Shown: positions 1 to 44,218 of the stretch, one piece after another
How the letters are laid out: every line of letters starts with the position of its first letter
Position numbering within the stretch: position 1 is the stretch's first letter
NCBI RefSeq assembly: GCF_000026545.1
Contig: NC_011601.1
Length of the DNA: 64,000 bases
Reading direction: 5' to 3' (one strand)
Source of the DNA: Escherichia coli O127:H6 str. E2348/69
Lineage (GTDB): Bacteria; Pseudomonadota; Gammaproteobacteria; Enterobacterales; Enterobacteriaceae
Made by a program: the position numbers and the translations under genes
The notes under the pieces: model-generated
Seen by the model: the letters and a program-made list of their open reading frames with translations, nothing else
What the model was told of the DNA's origin: nothing
The model's database searches: none

Positions 1-1
1 T

Positions 2-850
2 TCTACTAAAGGGATTCGTGAAGGACATACAGTCATTATATTTAAACAATCTGATGGTTCGACTAATCGTTATGAAGGGAAGTCTTTTGAAAGAAAAGAT
101 GATAGTTTATTACACCTGATTACTAACAAGGTTCTGGCGTGTTACCAACGCGAAGCTAACAAGGAAATAGCGCGTCTATTAAATAATCTACAGAAGTTAA
201 ATAATCTACAGGGGTTAAATGATTCGCAGGTGAGTTGTAAAGGTTCAGTTGATTCTACGATTACGGATTTATTAGAAAAAGCATTGAATAAAGCCTTATT
301 AGCAATAAGGAACGAACATCTGCTATTAATGCCTCATGTATGTGATGAATCGATTTCATACTTACTGGGCGAAAATGGTATACTTGAAGAAATAGATAAG
401 CTCTACGAATTAAATGATCACGGAATTGATAATGACAAAGAAGGTAACAATGAAATTAATGACATCATGATTAACCTGTCTCATATTCTTATTGAATCCT
501 TAGATGATGCAAAGGTTAATCTTACACCGGTCATCCATTCGATGTTGGTGACTTTTTTAGATTTGCCATATAATAATGATGTAAAAATACTGGAGTGGTG
601 TTTTAATAAAAGCATGCAATATTTTGATGATTCTGCAAAGATAGAGCATGCATGCTCCGTAATAAATCATATTAATTTTCGCCGCGATCAGTCTAAAGTA
701 GCTGAGACATTATTTTTCAATCTCGATAAAGAGCCCTATAAAAATAGCCCTGAATTACAGGAGTTGATTTGGAAAAAGTTGGTTGTATATGTCAATGATT
801 TTAATTTAAGCAATCGAGAAAAAAACATATTTAATACAAAGGATATTTAA
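2..850 (+). CDS. yjgL: C-terminal part of an AT-rich, Asn/Leu-rich uncharacterized protein (YjgL-like); 5' end lies outside the window
   Basis: Frame 2 is open from nt 2 to the TAA at 848-850; the track ORF 230..850 is only its Met-initiated tail. Its position convergent with argI matches K-12 synteny as I recall it. Confidence 0.55.
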   Translation, partial: STKGIREGHTVIIFKQSDGSTNRYEGKSFERKDDSLLHLITNKVLACYQREANKEIARLLNNLQKLNNLQGLNDSQVSCKGSVDSTITDLLEKALNKALLAIRNEHLLLMPHVCDESISYLLGENGILEEIDKLYELNDHGIDNDKEGNNEINDIMINLSHILIESLDDAKVNLTPVIHSMLVTFLDLPYNNDVKILEWCFNKSMQYFDDSAKIEHACSVINHINFRRDQSKVAETLFFNLDKEPYKNSPELQELIWKKLVVYVNDFNLSNREKNIFNTKDI

Positions 851-1303
851 TAATGTTGAGTCACTATTTAATAAAGCACCTGTCAGCATTTTAGTTAATG
901 ATATTTTTTTTGAATGATTTTTTATGAAAAACACTGAGATGATTAACTGGTGCTTTCCTCGGTTACTTAAGAGTTATGAGGGCGAAAAAATTATTTTGAT
1001 AATTTAAAATGTGATTTAAATGATGAGGAATCTAATAAAGAAACTTTGAAGAATCAACTAGATAATGTTATCAAAGAAAAAATGAATAATGAATTCAAAC
1101 TTAGATTTAGAATGATGCAAACTATCTTTAAATCGAAGGTTAATGTATCGCCATATATTAACCAACAGCGTTTAAATACACTAAATCCTCCGGAAAATTT
1201 ACGTATAGCAATAGAAAAATTTGGCTGAAAGAAAAAACTATCACTGCATAAAATAATGTGATGCCGGGATGTTTTTGTATTTCCCAGCATCTTTATAGAG
1301 ATA

Positions 1304-3636: not shown

Positions 3637-4824
3637 ATGAATGATGTAAACATCGGGAAAGATAATTCTCGGCACTCGTTTGTTTTCACAGGCAAAGGTG
3701 GTGAGTATTTTCTTATTTGTCTTGTGAATTTTTTACTGACAATTATTACTCTGGGAATATATGGGCCGTGGGCATTGATAAAATGCCGTCGTTATATTTA
3801 TCAACATGTGACACTCAAGGGGCAACCATTTAGTTATAAGGGAACAGGTGGTGCCATTTTTGTTAGCATGTTACTTATTGTGGTGGTTTATCTTCTCAGT
3901 ATTTCTTGTTTTGCAGGTCAACACTTTGCGCTCGGTTTATTCCTGTTTGCTCTCTTGATCTGCGGTATTCCTTGTATGGCAGTGAAGAGTCTGCAGTATC
4001 AGGCGAACATGACCTCACTGAATGACATTCGCTTTGGCTTTAACTGCTCAATGATGCGTGCATGGTGGGTTATGTTAGGTCTGCCAGTTTTGTTGGCATT
4101 AGCTTTTTGGCTCGCACTGTACCTTATTGCGCAAGTGACGACATCGATAGGTGGGTTATTCTTTAACTTAGTGGTCTTAAGTTTGCTTTCCGTCATCGGA
4201 CTGGGTGTTATCAACGGTATTACCTATAGCAAGTGGATGCCATTACTGGGTAATAACACGACTTTTGGTGTCCATCAATTTTCCATTAAGGTCAACGTAA
4301 AAGAGTGCATTAAAGGCTGTATGCTCGCAATATTAACCATGGTTCCTTTCATCATTGTGATTGGTATTATGATCGCACCAGTATTTCAGCAGTTAATGAT
4401 GATGACCATGTTGGGTAGGTCTGATGCTGGCAGTGAGTTTGTATTACAATATTACCCGCAGATTATGGCTTCTTATTTCCTGTATTTTGTCGCGATCCTT
4501 GTGTTTGCCAGTTATCTCTATGTCACGTTACGCAGTTTGTTCCTGAATAATCTGACACTGGCAAATGGCGCTATTCGTTTTCATTCATCTGTTACCGCGA
4601 TCGGTATGCTTCTGCGCATGTTGGCGTTATTAATGGGGGCCTCAATTACCTGTGGTCTGGCTTATCCCTGGCTGAAAATGTGGATGGTTAGCTGGATTGC
4701 TAACAATACCCATGTCCAGGGCGACCTTGATTCGCTGGAGTTAACCAATGATGACAAACCGCAGGATAGCGGTTCGTTAATGTGGATATCTCGCGGTATT
4801 ATGCCGTATGTTCCGTTTATCTAA
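3637..4824 (+). CDS. yjgN: polytopic inner-membrane protein (DUF898-type)
   Basis: 395-aa ORF with many hydrophobic segments, at the K-12 yjgN position. Confidence 0.85.
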   Translation: MNDVNIGKDNSRHSFVFTGKGGEYFLICLVNFLLTIITLGIYGPWALIKCRRYIYQHVTLKGQPFSYKGTGGAIFVSMLLIVVVYLLSISCFAGQHFALGLFLFALLICGIPCMAVKSLQYQANMTSLNDIRFGFNCSMMRAWWVMLGLPVLLALAFWLALYLIAQVTTSIGGLFFNLVVLSLLSVIGLGVINGITYSKWMPLLGNNTTFGVHQFSIKVNVKECIKGCMLAILTMVPFIIVIGIMIAPVFQQLMMMTMLGRSDAGSEFVLQYYPQIMASYFLYFVAILVFASYLYVTLRSLFLNNLTLANGAIRFHSSVTAIGMLLRMLALLMGASITCGLAYPWLKMWMVSWIANNTHVQGDLDSLELTNDDKPQDSGSLMWISRGIMPYVPFI

Positions 4825-8330: not shown

Positions 8331-9845
<1,515 letters not shown>

Positions 9846-15257: not shown

Positions 15258-15342
15258 GCCGAAGTGGCGAAATCGGTAGACGCAGTTGATTCAAAATCAA
15301 CCGTAGAAATACGTGCCGGTTCGAGTCCGGCCTTCGGCACCA
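15258..15342 (+). tRNA. leuX: tRNA-Leu (anticodon CAA)
   Basis: 85-nt gccgaagtggcgaaatcggtagacgcagttgattCAAaatcaaccgtagaaatacgtgccggttcgagtccggccttcggcacca: long variable arm, CAA anticodon, encoded CCA. Confidence 0.97.
15312..15342 (+). repeat. attL core: 31-bp direct repeat (3' end of leuX)
   Basis: cgtgccggttcgagtccggccttcggcacca is identical to 30373-30403. Confidence 0.9.
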
Positions 15343-30627: not shown

Positions 30628-33600
30628 TTATATCTGCCCGCCTACACCTTTAAACTTCTCAATAAACGCGACGATCTTCTGGAAAACCGTCTGTTTTTTC
30701 GTCTTATATTGCGGGTTTAACGGACTGAGTTTTGGCAATGTCTCGTTTAATTCCGTGCCATTTTCGGTGGCGTATTCGCGTTTTAAAGACGTGCGAATAT
30801 AGCGTTTCGCCGCCTCTTCATTGAGATTTTCTTCTTTAATCAACGCTTCTGCTTCACGTTGCTGTTCGCGTTGAGCAAAGGTAAAGAACGCGTCAATGAT
30901 GCTGGCTTTATCCGGCAAATCATCCAGGTTCGTTTGCTGAATAAAATCGACCACCAATCCTTCTTTAGCACGGTTCCCAAGGCTTGAACGAATTAAGCGT
31001 TTGACCTCTTCGGTCATTTCGCCCTTACCTTTGTTTTGTCTGTTGTGTTCGAAAATCAGTCCAAGGATATAATCCAGGTTTATTTCCTGAGACTTCAGCA
31101 AATCGACCTCAAAAACCACGTCATCCCAGTCGGTGGTTGATTTTTCTTTTTTGTCAGCTTCTTTCTCACGGCGCTGCCAGTCACGAATATCGTTATAGGC
31201 AGAACGATAATCCTGAATCTTGCGTTCAGCAGGGAGACGAATCGTTTGCAATTCAGCGAACTTTTCATCATCCACATAATGTTCTGCTTTGAATTTTTCT
31301 ACTGCAACAGGATCGCTAAGATCGATTTGTTGCAGGGCTTTCAGCGTGGCAAATTCATCATAGTTTTGCAGGATGTTCTCGGCACGCAGGTATTCACCAA
31401 ACAGTTTAACGAAGTCTTTCTTCTCTTTTTCACTTTCAATACTGGCAGGGTCAGGGAACCGTTGTTCCAGTTCTGCAACTACTGCCATAAAGCCGCGCTT
31501 AGCTTCACCAGTAGCAGCATCAGTAAAGCCTTCCATATACTCTGCATAACTCTTTTCTAACACTACATTTTTGGTGTTTTTGTCACCAAACAACGTTATG
31601 GCATCGATGGTTGAGCGTTCCAGATCGCGGAAAGTGACGATATTACCGAAGGTTTTAGTAGCGTCATAAATGCGGTTGGTGCGGGAAAATGCCTGCATCA
31701 GGCCGTGAAAACGCAAGTTTTTATCGACGAATAGCGTGTTCAATGTTGGAGCGTCGAAGCCGGTTAAAAACATCCCCACGACAATTAATAGATCGATATC
31801 CTGATTTTTAACCCGTTGGGCTAAATCACGATAGTAGTTCTGAAAACCGTTACTGTCGGTGCTGAAGTTAGTTTTAAAATAGCTGTTATACTCACGAATT
31901 GCAGCATCAAGAAACTCTTTAGCACTGCTGTCCATTGCGCTGGTATCAAAAGTTTCATCAGAAATTTCACCAATGGCATTTTGTTCTTCATTGGCGGTAA
32001 AGGAGAAGATTGTCGCAATACGCAGCGGTTTATAGGTAGCCGATTTATTAGCGGCTTCTTCTTGTAACCGTTTAAACGTCGCATAATAGGCTTTCGCGGC
32101 ATCCACGCTGCTCACTGCCAACATAGCATTAAAACCTTTTGAGCCAGGGAAGGTACGGTGGGTTTTCTGGCGGAAATTATTCAGAATATATTGCGTGATT
32201 TCCTGAATACGCATGGGATGAAGAAACGCCTGCTGATTTTCAGCCGCACTTAGTTTTTTCTCGTCAGTTTCTGTCTCTAAAGACTTAAACTGTGGTCGCA
32301 CATCGTTGTAGTCCACCTTGAATTTGAGCACTTTTTCGTCACGAATCGCATCGGTAATTACATACGAATGCAATTCACGACCAAATACGCTGGCGGTTGT
32401 TTCTGAGCCTAAGGCGTTTTCCGGGAAAATAGGGGTGCCGGTAAAACCAAACTGATAATAGCGTTTGAATTTCTTCTTCAGGTTTTTCTGCGCTTCTCCA
32501 AACTGGCTGCGGTGGCATTCATCAAATATAAACACCACTTGCTGATTATATACAGGCAGGTCGCTTTCTGCTTTCATCAGGTTATTGAGTTTCTGAATAG
32601 TAGTGACGATAATTTTGTTATCGTCCTTATCCAGATTTCGTTTAAGGCCTGCGGTATTTTCCGAGCCGTTGACGCTGTCTGGCGAAAAACGCTGATATTC
32701 CTTCATGGTCTGGTAATCGAGGTCTTTCCTGTCGACCACAAAGAAGACTTTATCAATAAAGTCCAGCTCTGTTGCCAGACGCGCGGCTTTAAAGCTGGTG
32801 AGGGTTTTACCAGAACCGGTAGTGTGCCAGATATACCCACCGCTTTCCGGTTTTGACCAGTTCTTCGCTGTAAAGGAACTCTTAATTTTCCACAGAATGC
32901 GCTCGGTGGCGGCAATCTGGTACGGTCGCATCACCAGTAGCGTCTGACTACTGTCAAAAACGCTGTAGTTCACCAGAACATTCAGCAGAGTATGTTTCTG
33001 GAAAAAGGTAGCGGTAAAGTCTTTGAGGTCTTTAATCAGCGTGTTGTCTGATTTCGCCCAGTTCATGGTGAAGTCAAAACTGTTTTTATCGCGCTTTGTC
33101 GTGTTGGCAAAATAACGGGTATCGGTGCCGTTAGAAATGACAAACAGTTGCAGATACTTAAACAGGGAATTTTCGCTGTTAAAACTCTCTTTACTGTAAC
33201 GATGTATCTGGTTGAAAGCCTCACGAATCGCCACCCCGCGTTTTTTTAGTTCGATTTGCACCAGCGGTAAACCATTAACCAGGATCGTGACGTCATAACG
33301 GTTAGCATGAGAACCCGTCTGTTCAAACTGCTGGATAATCTGCACCTTATTGCGCATGAGATTCTTTTTATCTATCAAATAGATGTTCTCAAGTCGCCCG
33401 TCGTCAAAAATAAAGTCGCAGATATAGTCGATATGGATTTTACGGGTTTTATCCAGAATACCATCGCTGGGGTTGTCCAGATACTGCTCCGTGAAGCGCC
33501 GCCACTCGCTGTCATTAAACATCACACCATTGAGGCTCTGAAGCTGTTCCCGAACATTAGACAGCATTGCCGACTGTGATTTTACGGAAATAAATTCATA

Positions 33601-33744
33601 ACCCTGATTCCGCAGGTCCTGAATCAGTTCACGTTCCAGGTCCGATTCGCTCTGGTAGCTGTCGCTTGTTTGCTCAGCTTTGATGTACTTATCAAGGACG
33701 ATAAAGTTATTGGATTCAGCAATGGTGTGTGTTTGATGAGTCAT
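30628..33744 (-). CDS. hsdR: type I restriction enzyme R subunit, type IC (EcoR124I family)
   Basis: 1038 aa, near-identical over its length to my recollection of EcoR124I HsdR ([24 protein letters not shown]...). Motifs TGSGKT and FDECHRS. Confidence 0.95.
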
Positions 33745-33865
33745 AGCGCATCCTTTGTGCCGCCTGGCAAGAGCCGGAAGGGCGTTAAGAGTGACTTCCG
33801 GCGCGTAAAAAATAGTCTATATACTGACCGGGTGTTAAGGTGGCCCGATCGGTAGCAATGGTCAA

Positions 33866-35088
<1,223 letters not shown>

Positions 35089-35092
<4 letters not shown>

Positions 35093-36645
35093 TTTTGCAC
35101 CTCGCAGCCTTCAATTTCAGCCACAATCGCATCAATATCTTTACGCAACTGGTCGATTTTGCTAACCGTAGTTTTAAGCTCTGCATTTAGCTCAGCAATA
35201 TTGATAATTTCGCGGTTATCTTTCGCTTCTACATAGCAGCTCACCGACAGGTTATAGTCATTAGCGACAACGGTCTCAAACGCGACAGATTTCGCCAGAT
35301 GAGCAACATCTTCCTTGCTGGCAAATACCTGCATAATCTGTTCGATATGGGCATCGGTCAGGATATTGTTGTTGGTCTCTTTTTTGAATAGTTCGCTGGC
35401 ATCAATAAACTGAACTTTGGTATCCGTTTTATGTTTAGACAGCACCAGAATATTTACGGCAATGGTGGTGCCAAAGAACAGGTTCGGTGCCAGTGAAATC
35501 ACGGTTTCGACATAGTTATTGTCAACCAGATACTGACGGATTTTCTGCTCCGCGCCGCCACGGTAAAAAATGCCCGGGAAGCAGACAATCGCAGCACGAC
35601 CTTTGGCAGAAAGATAGTTCAGCGCATGTAATACAAACGCAAAGTCAGCTTTGGATTTGGGGGCCAGAACGCCAGCCGGGGCAAAACGCTCATCGTTAAT
35701 CAGCGTCGGGTCATCGCTGCCAATCCATTTCACCGAATACGGCGGGTTAGAAACGATGGCATCAAACGGTTTTTCATCTCTGAAGTGCGGCTCAGTCAGC
35801 GTATTGCCCAGCTTGATATCAAACTTGTCGTAGTTGATGTTGTGCAAAAACATGTTCATACGTGCCAGGTTATAGGTCGTATGGTTGATTTCCTGTCCGA
35901 AAAAGCCTTCTTCAATGATATGGTTATCAAACTGCTTTTTAGCCTGCAACAACAGTGAGCCGGAACCCGCTGCCGGGTCGTAGATTTTGTTAACGTTGGT
36001 CTGCCCGTGCATAGCCAGTTGTGCAATCAGCTTGGAGACGTGCTGCGGTGTAAAGAACTCACCGCCTGACTTACCGGCATTTGCCGCATAGTTAGAAATC
36101 AGGAACTCATAGGCATCACCGAACAGGTCAATCTGATGTTCGTTGAAGTTACCAAGTTTTAACCCTTCAACCCCTTTCAGAACCGCAGCCAGGCGGGCAT
36201 TTTTATCTTTAACGGTGTTACCCAGGCGGTTACTGGTGGTATCGAAATCAGCAAACAAACCTTTGATGTCTGCTTCTGAAGGGTAGCCGTAAGCAGAACT
36301 TTCGATAGCAACGAAGATGCTGTTTAAATCTGCATTCAGTCTGTCATTGGTATTTGCTTTCGCCGCTACGTTGCAGAAAAGCTGACTGGGGTAGATGAAG
36401 TAGCCTTTAGTTTTGATGGCATCGTCTTTAATATCATCAGTAATTACGCTGTCATCCAGTTTCGCATAACAGATACTGTCATCACCGGCTTCAATATAGC
36501 TGGAAAAATTTTCGCTGATAAAACGGTAGAAAAGCGCGCCCAGAACGTATTGCTTAAAATCCCATCCATCGACCGAACCTCTGACATCGTTAGCAATTTG
36601 CCAGATTTGGCGATGAAGCTCCGCGCGCTGCTGAAGACTGGTCAT
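35089..36645 (-). CDS. hsdM: type I N6-adenine DNA methyltransferase M subunit
   Basis: 518 aa with motif [11 protein letters not shown] and motif IV NPPY ([10 protein letters not shown]). Its stop overlaps the hsdS start. Confidence 0.95.
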
Positions 36646-38146: not shown

Positions 38147-40201
38147 ATGGTTCAGGATTCATCAGCATTAGCCCCTTTCTTTCGTGCTCAAATTGAAAAA
38201 AATAATCAATACAATTCAGTTTGGGGCAAACACTACCGCGAGCTTGTAGAACAGATTCAGGCCGAAAAACCAAACTTTTCTGAAGCCACGATTCGGCAGG
38301 TATGGTATGAACGTGACAATGGTGTCTCCAGCCTGATGCAAGGTGGGATGTCATTGGTTGAATTTGAAAATGCACAAAAAGACCTTCTAACGCTCACCCG
38401 TCAGATAGCAGAAGAGTGTACACAAGAAAATTATAATCGGGTCATTGAACGTCTTATCAAACTTAAAGCGGACGGAGTATTAAATAAGGTATATAGGGCT
38501 CTTTGTAATCGTGCTTTTGCAGCAATATACCCATCAAAAATTAGCAGTGTCGTGAATGTTAATAATTTTTTTAGTTGCTACAATTATTGCAACAACCATT
38601 TCCAGCTAGGTCTTTCCGGAGAACGGGAGTGGCTGGCTCGCAATGTTGATCTTAAAGAAACGCTAAATCGTGCGCTGGGTGATGATATCGACCCTATTGA
38701 GCTGAATATGTCACTTTGGCATCTCTATGCGTATGAAATTCAGGATAAAAATGCTATCGGTTTAGTTGGAAGCGAAAGTGCTTTACAAGAAAATGAGCAA
38801 GAAGATGATGTTATAAGTTCGCCATTGCCTAAAAACACAATTCTCTATGGCCCGCCAGGTACAGGTAAAACATATCGTACTATTGAGCTTGCTGTACAAA
38901 TTTGTGATCCGATCGCTTACTCCCTGCAGGAGGGTAAGGATGAGAGTGAAAAACGTCGCGAGTTGAAAAAGATTTATGATCAGCTTATCAAAGATAATCG
39001 AGTGCGTTTTATCACCTTTCATCAGAGCTTTGGTTATGAAGAGTTTATTGAAGGTTTAAGAGCTGAGACTACTGATGACGGTAATGTAAAATACGAAATA
39101 AAGGCAGGTATTTTTAAACAGATATGCGAGGATGCCGCCTTTGGTCATGCTGGTGCGCAGGAAATGTTGGATAGCGCACTTACTCGCCTACAAGAACGTT
39201 TATCTGAAGGTGAAAATATCACGCTGGAAACACAACAGGGTAAGGCCTTCCAGCTGACGTATAAAAGTCAAACCAACTTTGGAATTTTTCCGTCACAATC
39301 GAAAAAAGAGGATTTAGGACAGGGTTACAATGCCTATTTGAAGGATATTCGGCAAGTTTATCAGGATCCACGAGCAAAAGTACATAATCCATCTTATGTA
39401 CGCAGTATCCTTAACTATTTAATTAATCAACGTTATCTGCCTCTGAATACTCAGAGCGTAGCTTCAGAAAAAAAGGAAAACTATGTTCTCATTATTGATG
39501 AAATAAATCGGGGTAATATTTCAAAAATTTTTGGTGAACTAATTACCCTTATTGAGCCATCTAAACGGGCTGGTGAGCCAGAATCGCTTAGCGTATTGCT
39601 GCCATACTCTTCCACTCCATTTAGTGTACCGAATAACCTTTATTTAATTGGTACCATGAACACTGCTGATCATTCGCTTACTGCACTTGATACTGCACTA
39701 CGTCGCAGATTTGATTTTGAAGCGATGCTGCCAGATATTACTGTTCTGAAAGATACTGTCATTAAAGGTATTGATCTGCCTCGTCTATTGCAGACGCTTA
39801 ACGATCGCATCCAGGTTTTATACGATAGAGAACATATGCTGGGGCATGCTTTTTTTATCCCTGTTGTGCAGGCAAAAGAAGACGAAGCTCTGGCATTTGA
39901 AAGATTCAAACGGATTATGCGAAATAAGATACTACCATTGCTGGAAGAATATTTTTACAATGACTGGCAAAAAATTCGCATGGTACTGGCTGATAACCAA
40001 AAAGAGGAAGCACCAGATCTTCAATTTGTACGTGAGGTGAAATACCAGAAAAAGTATGCCGATCTCTTTGGTGATAACGGAACAGATGACTTGGGAACCA
40101 GTTTTCACCTGGCAGCAGAGGATGACAACGTTTGGGACAATCCAATCGCCTGGCAGCAAATTTATGCACCTCAAAAAGAAAAACGCAGGAGTGCGGAATG
40201 A
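38147..40201 (+). CDS. McrB-family AAA+ GTPase with a non-canonical N-terminal domain and an internal insertion
   Basis: 684 aa with Walker A GPPGTGKT (aa 235-242), FITFHQSFGYEEFIEG, Walker B YVLIIDEINRGN (aa 446-457) and the McrB signature MNTADHS. Confidence 0.85.
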   Translation: MVQDSSALAPFFRAQIEKNNQYNSVWGKHYRELVEQIQAEKPNFSEATIRQVWYERDNGVSSLMQGGMSLVEFENAQKDLLTLTRQIAEECTQENYNRVIERLIKLKADGVLNKVYRALCNRAFAAIYPSKISSVVNVNNFFSCYNYCNNHFQLGLSGEREWLARNVDLKETLNRALGDDIDPIELNMSLWHLYAYEIQDKNAIGLVGSESALQENEQEDDVISSPLPKNTILYGPPGTGKTYRTIELAVQICDPIAYSLQEGKDESEKRRELKKIYDQLIKDNRVRFITFHQSFGYEEFIEGLRAETTDDGNVKYEIKAGIFKQICEDAAFGHAGAQEMLDSALTRLQERLSEGENITLETQQGKAFQLTYKSQTNFGIFPSQSKKEDLGQGYNAYLKDIRQVYQDPRAKVHNPSYVRSILNYLINQRYLPLNTQSVASEKKENYVLIIDEINRGNISKIFGELITLIEPSKRAGEPESLSVLLPYSSTPFSVPNNLYLIGTMNTADHSLTALDTALRRRFDFEAMLPDITVLKDTVIKGIDLPRLLQTLNDRIQVLYDREHMLGHAFFIPVVQAKEDEALAFERFKRIMRNKILPLLEEYFYNDWQKIRMVLADNQKEEAPDLQFVREVKYQKKYADLFGDNGTDDLGTSFHLAAEDDNVWDNPIAWQQIYAPQKEKRRSAE

Positions 40202-41508
40202 AATCTTCCAGTCATTTCACTGTGTTCGAATACGGGCATTTAGTGAGTGAGGAAGGTGATGCCCGTATAAATAATGCGGTAGTGCTACCTGCAGACCTAT
40301 TTAAATGGCTTGAGCTGCGCTGTCTGAAAGACGATGCTGATAATACTCATCGTTTGCTCACCCTTAGCAGCCGGAATGGAGTAAAAACGCTGCAGGTAAA
40401 AAACTATGCAGGAGTAATCTCACTGCCAGGGGGGCGATTTCTCGAAATCCTGCCTAAAACAGGTCAGGATAATGAGGATACTGTTCGTCAACAATTACTG
40501 ATGATGTTACGTACGTTAAAATCATTTCGTCATATTGCCTCCTCTGAATCTGGCGTCAAAATATCTAAAATGCCTCTGATGGATATCTTTATTCAACAAT
40601 TTATAGAGAGCGTGCGTAAGATTGTGCAGAGAGGGTTAAAACGTGACTATTTACGTCAGGAAGATAATCTTCCATGGATGAAAGGAAGATTACGGATCTC
40701 TGCACAATTAAGCAAAAACTGTATTAGGCGGGATCGTTTTCAGGTGGAGTATGACGAGTACAGCGTCAATCGTCTGGAAAACCGGATACTCAAAACTGCA
40801 ATCAATAAGATTAGTCGCCAGACCAGTAATCCACAATTATTACAGCAGATAACACAGCTGCAGTTTCACTTTGAAAATATCACGTCAGTTCATGATGCTT
40901 ATATAGCTTTCGAGCAGTTACACTTTGATAGACAAATGCATCACTATGAGCAAGCATTAGCGTGGGCGAAGATGATTTTATTGGGCGATTCTCCACACTG
41001 TATGTATGGGGATGTTAATGCTTTTTCACTGCTTTTCCCGATGGAGGCTGTTTTTGAATCTTTTGTGACGACATGGATGCGTTATCGTTATTATGATAAA
41101 TGGCGAGTGGACGCACAGGTAAGTTCAAAAAATCTGATTAGTTATAACGGTAAAGCTTTATTTAAGCTGCGGCCTGATATTTGTTTACGGCCTCGTAAAA
41201 GTACTACTGGTTCAGTTATTACCTGTGATGTTAAATGGAAGATAGTAAATGGCAGAAAGGACAGTCTTGAACAATCTCAAGCCGATCTCTACCAAATGCT
41301 TGCCTATGGATTGAATTACCAGGAGGGGGAAGGTGATATGATTTTGATATACCCCTATCATAACGGATTTAATCAGCCATCTCCTCATCCTTATGAATTT
41401 AGCCATCAGAAGGAAAATAGGTTACGTTTATGGGTTGTACCTTTCTTTATTGGCGAGAGTTTACAAACATCAGAGTTGCGTTTTCCTGGTGGGGCTGAAT
41501 TTATTTAG
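40198..41508 (+). CDS. McrC-like nuclease subunit
   Basis: The ATG at 40198 overlaps the mcrB-like stop (ATGA) and has RBS AGGAG 6 nt upstream. 436 aa with a PD-(D/E)xK-like LRPDI...CDVKWK. Confidence 0.8.
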   Translation: MKSSSHFTVFEYGHLVSEEGDARINNAVVLPADLFKWLELRCLKDDADNTHRLLTLSSRNGVKTLQVKNYAGVISLPGGRFLEILPKTGQDNEDTVRQQLLMMLRTLKSFRHIASSESGVKISKMPLMDIFIQQFIESVRKIVQRGLKRDYLRQEDNLPWMKGRLRISAQLSKNCIRRDRFQVEYDEYSVNRLENRILKTAINKISRQTSNPQLLQQITQLQFHFENITSVHDAYIAFEQLHFDRQMHHYEQALAWAKMILLGDSPHCMYGDVNAFSLLFPMEAVFESFVTTWMRYRYYDKWRVDAQVSSKNLISYNGKALFKLRPDICLRPRKSTTGSVITCDVKWKIVNGRKDSLEQSQADLYQMLAYGLNYQEGEGDMILIYPYHNGFNQPSPHPYEFSHQKENRLRLWVVPFFIGESLQTSELRFPGGAEFI

Positions 41509-41570: not shown

Positions 41571-42443
41571 TCACCCCCTAAAAACCTCTTTCCGATGCCA
41601 CTCTACAAACACCTCATAAGGGTAATTTTTACGTACCTGCGGCAAAGCAATAGTTTTCCCGTCAAAATCCCAGAATAGTTTCTCAACGATCCCTCCGCCG
41701 TTTACCGCATCTGATACCAGTACCCGCATATTTTCGTCCAGGCCAATCGATCCTTTATCAAAGGCTTTATGGTGAATTGCGCAAAGCGCCAGGCCATTAG
41801 GAATTTCACAAGGACCGCCGTGCTGTTTCCATTTTATATGCGCCGCTTCAAGCGCGACGGTGGTGTCGTCGTGGCGCATATTAAAGCCACATATCGCGCA
41901 CTGGTAGTTATAAGCGCGTAATACATTTTTGCGAAATAACGGGTCGCGCTGTTTACGGATTTGCTGGAGGTCAAAACCCAATTCGTCAGCAATTTCCTCC
42001 TGAATACTCTCGGTAAAATGCGCTTCGAGTATCTGTTGCGCCAGGGTATTGATGAGTTTTTTATTGCCGGTTACCAGGGCGTAGTGCTGTTCATCGAAAC
42101 CGCCTGCAACGCGGTGTTCGGTCAGTTCCTTCACTGGCGGTTGTCGGCTGCTCCCTGCTGTTGAGCAAAGCCCGGCATTGTGTAATTGCCAGAATCCGTC
42201 GCCTTGTAATCGCCAGAACGGCATATCAGGTCGGTACTGTGAACGCTGTGGCCCAAAACGTTCCAGTAAACTGTGCAGAGGTTCGTAGATTTCCGAGCCA
42301 TAATCGAAAAGGCGCGGATGTCCATTCAGGTATCCCGCTAATACGTATAGCAATAACAATGGCTTATGCGGCGCGCGCTGTTCACCCTTGTGCCAGATTT
42401 TTATATTGGCAATTGCCTGCTGTAGCGATTTACTGGAAGCCAT
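41571..42443 (-). CDS. HNH (HNH_2-type) endonuclease with an N-terminal putative modified-DNA reader domain
   Basis: I prefer the start at MASSKSLQQ (42443, RBS AGGGA). The C-terminus is YQCAICGFNMRHDDTTVALEAAHIKW...NGLALCAIHHKAFDKG. The N-terminus has RAPHKPLLLLYVL ... PFWRLQGDGFW. Confidence 0.7.
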   Translation of the reverse strand: MASSKSLQQAIANIKIWHKGEQRAPHKPLLLLYVLAGYLNGHPRLFDYGSEIYEPLHSLLERFGPQRSQYRPDMPFWRLQGDGFWQLHNAGLCSTAGSSRQPPVKELTEHRVAGGFDEQHYALVTGNKKLINTLAQQILEAHFTESIQEEIADELGFDLQQIRKQRDPLFRKNVLRAYNYQCAICGFNMRHDDTTVALEAAHIKWKQHGGPCEIPNGLALCAIHHKAFDKGSIGLDENMRVLVSDAVNGGGIVEKLFWDFDGKTIALPQVRKNYPYEVFVEWHRKEVFRG

Positions 42444-42579
42444 TGATATCCCTGGCAGTGAAATAATTGCGATCATGCTCGCAAATTTTCTTCTGTTCAA
42501 GCCTGCAAGTGAAGATATATTACTTTGATCTCATTTGTTTTTTTGCTGCCTGCTCTGAGAACGTATAAGGATATTCCCC

Positions 42580-43230
42580 ATGAATAAACTTCCCGACCAT
42601 CTTCCGCGGCGGTATATCATCGAAGCTATCCATTTATGGGATGCGGGAGAAACTCATCAGTTCCAGCCTGCACGGTTGTATTAGATTGAATATCATGGCC
42701 GACGTTACCCCTCGAAGGCGATTGCTGGCATCGCAGCGACATTGATGACGGGGACGCAATTTACCCCTGCGGATTTCACCGGCGGAATAAAATCTAAATG
42801 CGTCAAACTACTCATAGAGCAGGGATTTCATATTCATCAGGATAAAGCCGCTGCGGCTCCCATAGCCGACGTTCTGTTCCCGGATGAGTTGCCGTCGCAG
42901 GAGACCTACGTTGAAGGTGCGGCGATAAAGGTGACAGTAAACCGCTATGAACGCGATAAAAAGGTCCGAGATAAAGCGGTCGAATATCATGGATGCCAGT
43001 GCAACGTATGCGGCGTTGATCTGGTGAAGATCTATGGTGATATTGCTGAAGGCTTTATCCATATGCATCACCTGGTGCCGCTTTCAGCCATTAAAGAGGA
43101 TTACCAGCTGGATCCAGTTAATGATTTGCTGCCTGTGTGTCCTAATTGCCATGCGATGTTGCACCGACGCAAACCACCGTTTACGCCGGAGGAGTTAAAA
43201 GCGTTGATGGATGCGAATAAATCAAATTAA
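42580..43230 (+). pseudogene. McrA-like HNH endonuclease interrupted by an in-frame TAG at codon 35
   Basis: ATG at 42580 with RBS AAGGA. The frame runs MNKLPDHLPRRYIIEAIHLWDAGETHQFQPARLY-TAG(42682-42684)-IEYHGRRYPSKAIAGIAA... and continues into track ORF 42742..43230, which carries CQCNVCG...HMHHLVPLS...LLPVCPNCHAMLH. Confidence 0.7.
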
Positions 43231-43237
43231 TGAACGC

Positions 43238-44218
43238 TCACCTTTCGCGCCAAAACTGCAAAATTGCTTCTACAAACCTGTCAGAAATAATCCCCCGACG
43301 GGCTGCCGCGCTGAAATGACTGCTTCGCAGTGCCGTCGTCCAGTTCTCCGGTGACCGGTACGCTGAACCGTAATATCCCGTGCTTAAATCGTCCGGGTCT
43401 TCATCAGGCGCGTTCGTCAGTCCTCTTTCACCTTGTTGCTGGAAGTCGACGAAAATAATATTGGCTAAAACATTATTTTGATAATTGCCATAAATAGCTT
43501 CATACGCATGAGGGAAATTTTCTTTCCAGTACCAGGTGGTATCGCCGCAAAACCACGGTGCGTCAGTAATATTATTAAGCTGAGAATGGTATTGTTTTAG
43601 ATCCCTACGAAAGGCTTCAACCATATGATTAAAGTGTTGAGGATGTGACGCGTAGTCACTGGTCATTAAGTCAAATTCGCCTTGCATCCAGCATACGCCG
43701 AGGAATTTGTTCTGCGGATTTTTTGCCAGTGCGGCTCGCGTTCTGCTCACTAAATCCTGGTATAGCGGAGTATCCGTTCCCCAACGACAAGCATCATGGC
43801 TGGCTCCGTGCCGTTCTGAATATGTCCCTTCGCTGCCCGCGGTAAAAGCCGATCCGCCACGGCAACACGGAACGATGAGAACCCCTGCATTATCAGGAAT
43901 AAAGGGCAGTAATTTCCGTGCTATATGCAGTGCCTGGCCAACGGTGCCGTACTGTGTTTGATGATTCGTTGCCAGAGGATGGTGATAACCCTGCATATCC
44001 TGAACATCGTGTGGGCAGTGAGTCAGTGGAATAATGTCGTTAAAGTGACATGACGGGCCTCCGGGATGCGTATGCGCAAATCTCGCTAATTGTTTAATTC
44101 TGGGATGAGGCGCATCTTCCTTGTCCGGTAATGGTAGTCCTTCGCCATACGCCATGGCATTAGATTGACCAGCAACGGTAAGAACATAGTAATAATCGGG
44201 CGATATTATCGCGTTCAT
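43238..44218 (-). CDS. nanS: 9-O-acetyl-N-acetylneuraminate esterase
   Basis: 326 aa (MNAIISPDYYYVLTVAGQSNAMAYGEG...) matching my recollection of NanS/YjhS. Confidence 0.92.
   Translation of the reverse strand: MNAIISPDYYYVLTVAGQSNAMAYGEGLPLPDKEDAPHPRIKQLARFAHTHPGGPSCHFNDIIPLTHCPHDVQDMQGYHHPLATNHQTQYGTVGQALHIARKLLPFIPDNAGVLIVPCCRGGSAFTAGSEGTYSERHGASHDACRWGTDTPLYQDLVSRTRAALAKNPQNKFLGVCWMQGEFDLMTSDYASHPQHFNHMVEAFRRDLKQYHSQLNNITDAPWFCGDTTWYWKENFPHAYEAIYGNYQNNVLANIIFVDFQQQGERGLTNAPDEDPDDLSTGYYGSAYRSPENWTTALRSSHFSAAARRGIISDRFVEAILQFWRER

Follow-up and report, generated by a model that had tools for sequence, protein, structure and literature searches.

A single amber codon has very probably made a pseudogene of a two-domain HNH nuclease gene in Escherichia coli E2348/69

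In the reference enteropathogenic Escherichia coli (EPEC) strain E2348/69 (O127:H6), the gene for a stand-alone nuclease of two domains is interrupted by one in-frame amber codon, and we conclude that it is very probably a pseudogene, made by a single nonsense mutation from GAG (Glu35) to TAG that would have arisen inside the clonal group of this strain. The gene lies in a 64,000-nucleotide stretch of the chromosome (contig NC_011601.1 of RefSeq assembly GCF_000026545.1), referred to here as the window, to which all positions below apply unless a locus is named.

The intact enzyme of 216 amino acids (aa) begins with a ScoMcrA-type head domain (residues ~1–90), which a disordered linker joins to an HNH domain of the McrA zinc-finger type at the C-terminus. 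As in McrA, ScoMcrA and TagI, the N-terminal domain would direct the HNH nuclease to foreign DNA that is probably modified, or regulate its action on such DNA. In E2348/69, translation from the ATG at 42580 would end after 34 residues, part-way along strand 1 of the head, and termination at that point would leave no functional enzyme; minor products might still come from traces of near-cognate readthrough, or from a weak start inside the gene that omits the head domain. This would leave the reference EPEC strain without a nuclease that hundreds of other E. coli keep intact under purifying selection, and the natural null allele, set beside the intact copies, would lend itself well to finding the role of the ScoMcrA head domain.

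One reading frame split at codon 35

A sequence-only reading of the window had described an ATG at 42580, preceded by an AAGGA ribosome-binding site, that opens a frame of 34 codons, meets TAG and then continues to a total of 216 codons, and each of these elements was found in the sequence as described (Table 1). Translation showed the frame to be open for another 181 codons after the TAG, up to the TAA at 43228–43230, with the CQCNVCG, HHLVPLS and CPNCHAMLH motifs all in frame downstream of the stop. The AAGGA motif is kept in the four E. coli alleles of our allele alignment, and gene callers have reported the 34-aa open reading frame (ORF) in public assemblies. A scan of positions 42350–43400 for sigma-70 promoters found none, a result that is not decisive.

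That the amber codon splits what is one gene was confirmed by other E. coli strains (UID2309220013, 2014C-4135, 1368KP, 1303 and FDAARGOS_144), in which an uninterrupted 216-aa coding sequence (CDS) is annotated in the same place. The intact E. coli and enterobacterial orthologues (WP_001037969.1, WP_001037966.1 and WP_021571039.1 among them) likewise adjoin nanS, are 216 aa long and share 96–99% aa identity. Codon 35, which is TAG in E2348/69, is GAG (Glu) in these orthologues, and in many of them conserved residues have changed independently, C187Y and R122C being examples. In an alignment of 20 homologues down to ~41% identity, taking in Citrobacter, Klebsiella, Pantoea, Shewanella, Sulfurimonadaceae and others, residue 35 was Glu or Asp throughout. 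The 34 codons upstream of the stop were conserved in the same homologues, with P5, A16, H26, F28 and Y34 invariant, and an alignment of 85 sequences agreed on this N-terminal conservation. The residues around the stop thus form a continuous, conserved N-terminus, as had been surmised from the letters alone, and intact homologues include the upstream codons instead of starting at the downstream Met.

Domain architecture of the intact protein

HNH was the only Pfam match of the protein (score 21.8 bits, cut-off 21.4). For its homologues, the precomputed Pfam matches are PF26345 (ScoMcrA_N) together with PF01844 (HNH). Searching the sequences of the Protein Data Bank (PDB) with phmmer, we found residues 24–86 to match the ScoMcrA head (residues 29–92 of 5zmm_A, E 1e-3), and a PDB sequence search also matched residues 123–198 to the HNH domain of EcoKMcrA (6ghc, E 0.018). 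A profile search for other fusions, made with just the N-terminal domain, yielded hardly anything but short fragments and so gave no information on architectures.

The AlphaFold2 model that we built for the E. coli protein from 85 sequences reached a mean predicted local distance difference test (pLDDT) score of 82, with ~84–95 over residues 1–80. In this model, a compact N-terminal domain (helix 10–22, hairpin 34–38/41–44, helices 45–57 and 73–80, strand 84–87) is followed by a disordered linker of ~30 residues (~92–120) and the HNH domain (121–216), and residue 35 lies within the first strand of the N-terminal domain. The best PDB match in Foldseek was ScoMcrA 5zmm (probability 1.0), followed by Cap5 HNH domains. 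All residues of the zinc-finger HNH (C141, C144, H163, H164, C187, C190, H191 and H195) are retained in the E2348/69 allele.

The gene thus has both the head domain and the CxxC...HH...CxxCH pattern of a ScoMcrA_N-HNH family (PF26345 + PF01844, ~210–220 aa), of which it is a member by descent that has been inactivated, its ORF being broken by the TAG and called a pseudogene in RefSeq. The earlier description of the protein as McrA-like therefore holds for the HNH catalytic domain, which matches 6ghc, and fails for the N-terminus, which is a ScoMcrA head and not the NEco domain of EcoKMcrA. The N-terminus may, as had been proposed as well, be a DNA-binding domain, and the protein a type IV nuclease. 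The structure paper gives the function of the ScoMcrA head as unknown (PMC6224610). Matches to the mREase_IV models of PADLOC were weak (E 1e-4 and 2.5e-4), and it is from the architecture and the island context that we infer a putative type IV, modification-dependent nuclease.

Distribution of the amber allele

The spread of the stop was assessed with exact 31-mers, positioned so that any megablast match (word size 28) necessarily spans the exact codon. Among 5426 complete E. coli genomes, codon 35 read GAG in 1095 and TAG in three, all of them E2348/69 or its derivatives. These comprise CP059840.2 and LT827011.1, two independently produced E2348/69 assemblies with identical TAG, and LT903847.1, a construct derived from LT827011.1.

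The exact 161-aa truncated product, called from the first ATG after the stop, was present on ~40 contigs of public assemblies. All eight loci with this product that were fetched (from NCBI, ENA or Logan assemblies) carried TAG at codon 35, and six of the eight differed from the window by 0–1 single-nucleotide polymorphism (SNP) per 3.5 kb. The remaining loci, ERZ761554 and ERZ761544, also carried TAG, with a different sequence upstream of 41911 and 3–6 SNPs in nanS, and represent a related but distinct strain. Together these sequences indicate that the TAG is real and confined to a narrow clonal group.

Age of the stop and other routes of gene loss

Across six alleles, 30 codons varied synonymously and 16 nonsynonymously, and the resulting rough ratio of nonsynonymous to synonymous rates (dN/dS) of ~0.2 indicates that purifying selection has acted on the gene in E. 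coli. Specific to E2348/69 were four synonymous changes, the E35-to-stop mutation and A129V. With the stop left out, nonsynonymous and synonymous changes stood at 1:4, for which the binomial P (at most one nonsynonymous change out of five) is ~0.02 under neutrality, where ~73% of changes would be expected to be nonsynonymous. No second stop or frameshift was found in frame after the TAG. Given this ratio and the lack of a second disabling mutation, the stop seems young compared with the branch of its allele, suggesting, on small counts, that inactivation was recent relative to allele divergence. In this sense, as a lineage-restricted event, the recent inactivation proposed by the sequence-only reading is supported.

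Other strains have lost the gene differently. One allele has a 583-bp deletion between two copies of an 11-bp direct repeat (Table 1), and its downstream breakpoint also accounts for the large classes of partial matches, which add up to gene remnants in ~1900 genomes. The stop in E2348/69 is one of several independent routes of gene loss in E. coli. That unrelated mutations have removed the gene again and again is consistent with an accessory defence gene that can be dispensed with and is decaying in some lineages.

Two homologues in other genera also look like independent pseudogenisations within the ScoMcrA_N-HNH family. The Shigella flexneri orthologue (locus L018, 8001–8647) is apparently disrupted near its 5′ end, its head-domain match starting only at residue 22, and the Aeoliella homologue (locus L025, 7995–8631) is split into two ORFs.

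A separate polymorphism affects codon 187 (43138–43140; 3639–3641 in locus L003), which encodes the leading Cys in the zinc-ligand motif CPNCH, a residue with at least 90% conservation across the family. Exact 31-mers, which count full-length genes and remnants together, gave Tyr in 1317 genomes, Cys-TGC in at least 987 and Cys-TGT in 152, so that Tyr187 (TAC) is a common E. coli polymorphism and not the overwhelming majority. Since a conserved Cys is replaced by Tyr in a common allele, many copies annotated as intact may be catalytically or structurally impaired. Strain 1303 carries R122C at a near-invariant site, and A129V is found in E2348/69.

Alternative explanations

The alternative that survives best, itself improbable, is that internal initiation yields a head-less HNH protein with some activity, either from ATG 42745 (161 aa) or from the ATT after the stop (181 aa). 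Such ORFs have been annotated by gene callers and in the RefSeq record of LT827011.1, and the HNH domain of the E2348/69 allele is intact, including all four Cys ligands. Against this, ATG 42745 is not preceded by a Shine-Dalgarno-like motif, and ATT serves very poorly as a start codon. According to the AlphaFold2 model, the product starting at Met56 would moreover be without helix 1, both hairpin strands and most of helix 2, which amounts to over half of the head domain. No conserved homologue has a head-less architecture, the short database entries being fragments or pseudogene calls.

Slightly less probable still is the idea, raised by the sequence-only reading, that the intact nuclease attacked host DNA bearing the methylation of the neighbouring type I restriction-modification (R-M) system, and that the mutation was selected for this reason. 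The pseudogene is the last gene of the leuX defence island on the side of nanS, which it abuts; the island runs from AbiTii over an integrase, the type I R-M genes (hsdRSM), DUF4942, a McrB/McrC-family pair and a gene for an HNH nuclease with a sulfur-binding domain (SBD-HNH) to the pseudogene and nanS. The HNH gene is ~6 kb from hsdM and hsdS in the same island, and it has been lost repeatedly in E. coli. The HsdS proteins of E2348/69 and strain 1303 are only 46% identical and differ in both target-recognition domains, so that the methylation pattern would be strain-specific. Yet at least 80% of the segment from hsdS to the HNH gene is common to 182 genomes, and strain 1303, with the same architecture, has both an HsdM of 98% identity and an HNH gene coding for Glu35 and Cys187. 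The proposed self-toxicity finds no support, although a conflict that depends on HsdS specificity keeps a small probability.

It is very improbable that the TAG is regulatory and no lesion, with full-length protein made through amber suppression or programmed readthrough. The downstream frame contains no further stops or frameshifts over its 181 codons, which speaks for this explanation, and UAG in E. coli is subject to a low background of near-cognate readthrough; an open frame is, however, expected anyway of a young pseudogene. The stop is not conserved among orthologues, being limited to one clonal group against the 1095 genomes with GAG, and every aligned homologue has Glu or Asp at this position. 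The suppressor loci tell the same way, as the anticodons of glnV, tyrT and leuX in E2348/69 are wild type. Its glnV operon, read directly, encodes three Gln tRNAs with anticodons TTG, TTG and CTG. The supE form of glnV was exact in 156 records, of which the 25 matches listed were K-12-type laboratory strains, and supF-type tyrT (a 61-mer with CTA anticodon) was exact in one laboratory strain only, OV2. The leuX tRNA, which is both the integration site of the island and the supP amber-suppressor locus, is of the non-suppressor type here, with a CAA anticodon. An unconserved stop without supE, supF or supP makes a suppression-dependent gene very unlikely, and the sequence-only reading's alternative of expression through a suppressor tRNA or readthrough is not supported.

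A sequencing or assembly error is scarcely credible, because the identical TAG recurs in CP059840.2, in LT827011.1 with its derivative LT903847.1 and in eight further assemblies from independent samples, among which is the related but distinct strain.

Inactivation by a single nonsense mutation therefore remains our preferred explanation, and some points weigh against it. The nearest intact allele, that of FDAARGOS_144, differs at nine CDS positions, which means that the E2348/69 allele has a history of its own, and the age of the stop appears bounded only statistically, by small counts. We found no experimentally characterised member of the ScoMcrA_N-HNH family, and the roles given here to the intact enzyme, and to its head domain especially, are putative. 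None of supE, supF and supP was present in E2348/69 upon checking glnV, tyrT and leuX, a check that leaves serU and lysT-type ochre suppressors outside. Finally, E2348/69 may make full-length or truncated protein in small amounts.

Annotation and genomic surroundings

The region is 100% identical to the reverse strand of the E2348/69 chromosome NZ_CP059840.2, in which RefSeq calls the identical 651-nt span a pseudogene (H4J01_RS21410 of CP059840.2, 'HNH endonuclease, internal stop'). The core finding is thus already on record, and as a discovery this routine nonsense pseudogene, flagged by the NCBI pipeline, carries little weight; a literature search on the E2348/69 HNH pseudogene retrieved nothing relevant. 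In LT827011.1 ('E2348/69 variety 2') and LT903847.1, by contrast, the same sequence is annotated as a 181-aa CDS (WP_286086248.1) that starts from an ATT directly after the TAG. The identical sequence is therefore a pseudogene in one RefSeq record and a CDS in two, which is an inconsistency of annotation and not of biology.

The adjacent nanS gene (43238–44218, minus strand) is a complete ORF of 326 aa in the window and is called a 326-aa SASA-family protein in other assemblies, whereas RefSeq gives E2348/69 only a 345-nt partial nanS pseudogene. RefSeq also lists a 29-aa 'hypothetical protein' (43230–43319, plus strand) antisense to the 3′ end of nanS, which overlaps the HNH stop codon (TAATG). 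Both the nanS pseudogene and the 29-aa call are probably annotation artefacts. Another RefSeq pseudogene, H4J01_RS25570 (hypothetical protein, frameshifted, internal stop), occupies the left edge of the window (1–1251).

Table 1. Coordinates of the split HNH gene, its parts and its neighbours in the window
Feature	Position	Strand	Remarks
Whole pseudogene, ScoMcrA_N (head) + HNH endonuclease	42580..43230	+	651 nt; 216 codons, TAG counted, then TAA; broken at codon 35
Shine-Dalgarno-like AAGGA	42567..42571	+	8 nt 5′ of ATG 42580; read from the sequence
First 34 codons (MNKLPDHLPRRYIIEAIHLWDAGETHQFQPARLY)	42580..42681	+	N-terminal helix and beginning of head-domain strand 1; now an ORF by itself
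Amber codon TAG	42682..42684	+	Codon 35; ancestral GAG (Glu35); G>T transversion at 42682
Head domain, codons 1–90	42580..42849	+	Homologue of the N-terminal head of ScoMcrA (PF26345, ScoMcrA_N)
First in-frame ATG past the stop (Met56)	42745..42747	+	Gene-caller start of the 161-aa truncated ORF
181-aa CDS call	42685–43230 (9120–9665 in locus L011; 286–831 in locus L107)		Same sequence called a pseudogene in CP059840.2
HNH beta-beta-alpha-metal core	43000..43164	+	C141-x2-C144, H163-H164, D182, C187-x2-C190-H191, H195
11-bp direct repeat TTTGCTGCCTG, upstream copy	42542..42552	+	One endpoint of the 583-bp deletion allele in other strains
11-bp direct repeat TTTGCTGCCTG, downstream copy	43125..43135	+	Within the HNH domain
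SBD-HNH 'phosphorothioated DNA-binding restriction endonuclease', intact	41571..42443	-	PF26340 + PF13391; NF045808, 437 bits; WP_000168585.1
McrB-family + McrC-family gene pair	38147..41508	+	Pfam AAA_5 and McrBC; RefSeq
Type I R-M genes hsdR, hsdS, hsdM	30628..36645	-	RefSeq annotation; the 'neighbouring methylase' of the self-toxicity idea
leuX tRNA-Leu	15258..15342	+	Wild-type CAA anticodon (ARAGORN); only tRNA in the window

Comparison with known restriction systems

ScoMcrA, the phosphorothioate-dependent type IV enzyme of Streptomyces coelicolor (PDB 5zmm), carries head, SBD and HNH on a single polypeptide, whereas in the E2348/69 island the SBD is found in the separate, divergent SBD-HNH gene. 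This likeness suggested that the divergent pair could be a split ScoMcrA, i.e. a two-gene module of head-HNH and SBD-HNH. The head-HNH gene again divergently adjoins an SBD-HNH gene in Klebsiella (locus L012, 4952–6651). Elsewhere, an SBD-HNH gene lies 4 kb away from an E. coli paralogue (57% identity; loci L013–L015, 6001–11616) borne on an integrative and conjugative element, an HNH_2 gene is found near the Sulfurimonadaceae homologue, and Shigella has the SBD-HNH partner as a remnant. The paralogue on the conjugative element is itself surrounded by TraI, TraG and ArdC genes.

Eight further full-length loci, from Raoultella, Escherichia sp., Pseudescherichia and five taxa that are more distant, had no SBD-HNH gene within 8 kb, and none of the other neighbour families recurred. 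An obligate two-gene system was rejected on account of these eight loci, and a functional module of the two genes seems unlikely. Were the two genes to act together, the amber allele of E2348/69 would amount to a natural knockout of one of them, and could reveal the role of the head domain, for example as a new reader of modified DNA or as a regulator of phosphorothioate-dependent restriction.

As a protein, the 216-aa product differs from both characterised enzymes in what lies outside the shared domains. ScoMcrA, at ~560 aa, has its SBD and SRA domains between head and HNH, and both are absent from the E. coli protein: the latter scored 17 bits against the NCBIfam model PT-DNA_restrict (cut-off 180), no SRA-like domain was matched in Pfam, and the region between its two domains is a disordered linker in the model. 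EcoKMcrA, the HNH enzyme of E. coli K-12 that depends on 5-methylcytosine (5mC) or 5-hydroxymethylcytosine (5hmC; PDB 6ghc), is 277 aa long and recognises 5mC/5hmC through its NEco domain. This 5mC reader is lacking in the 216-aa protein, and what the two have in common is the McrA-type HNH catalytic domain, the only part that aligns to 6ghc.
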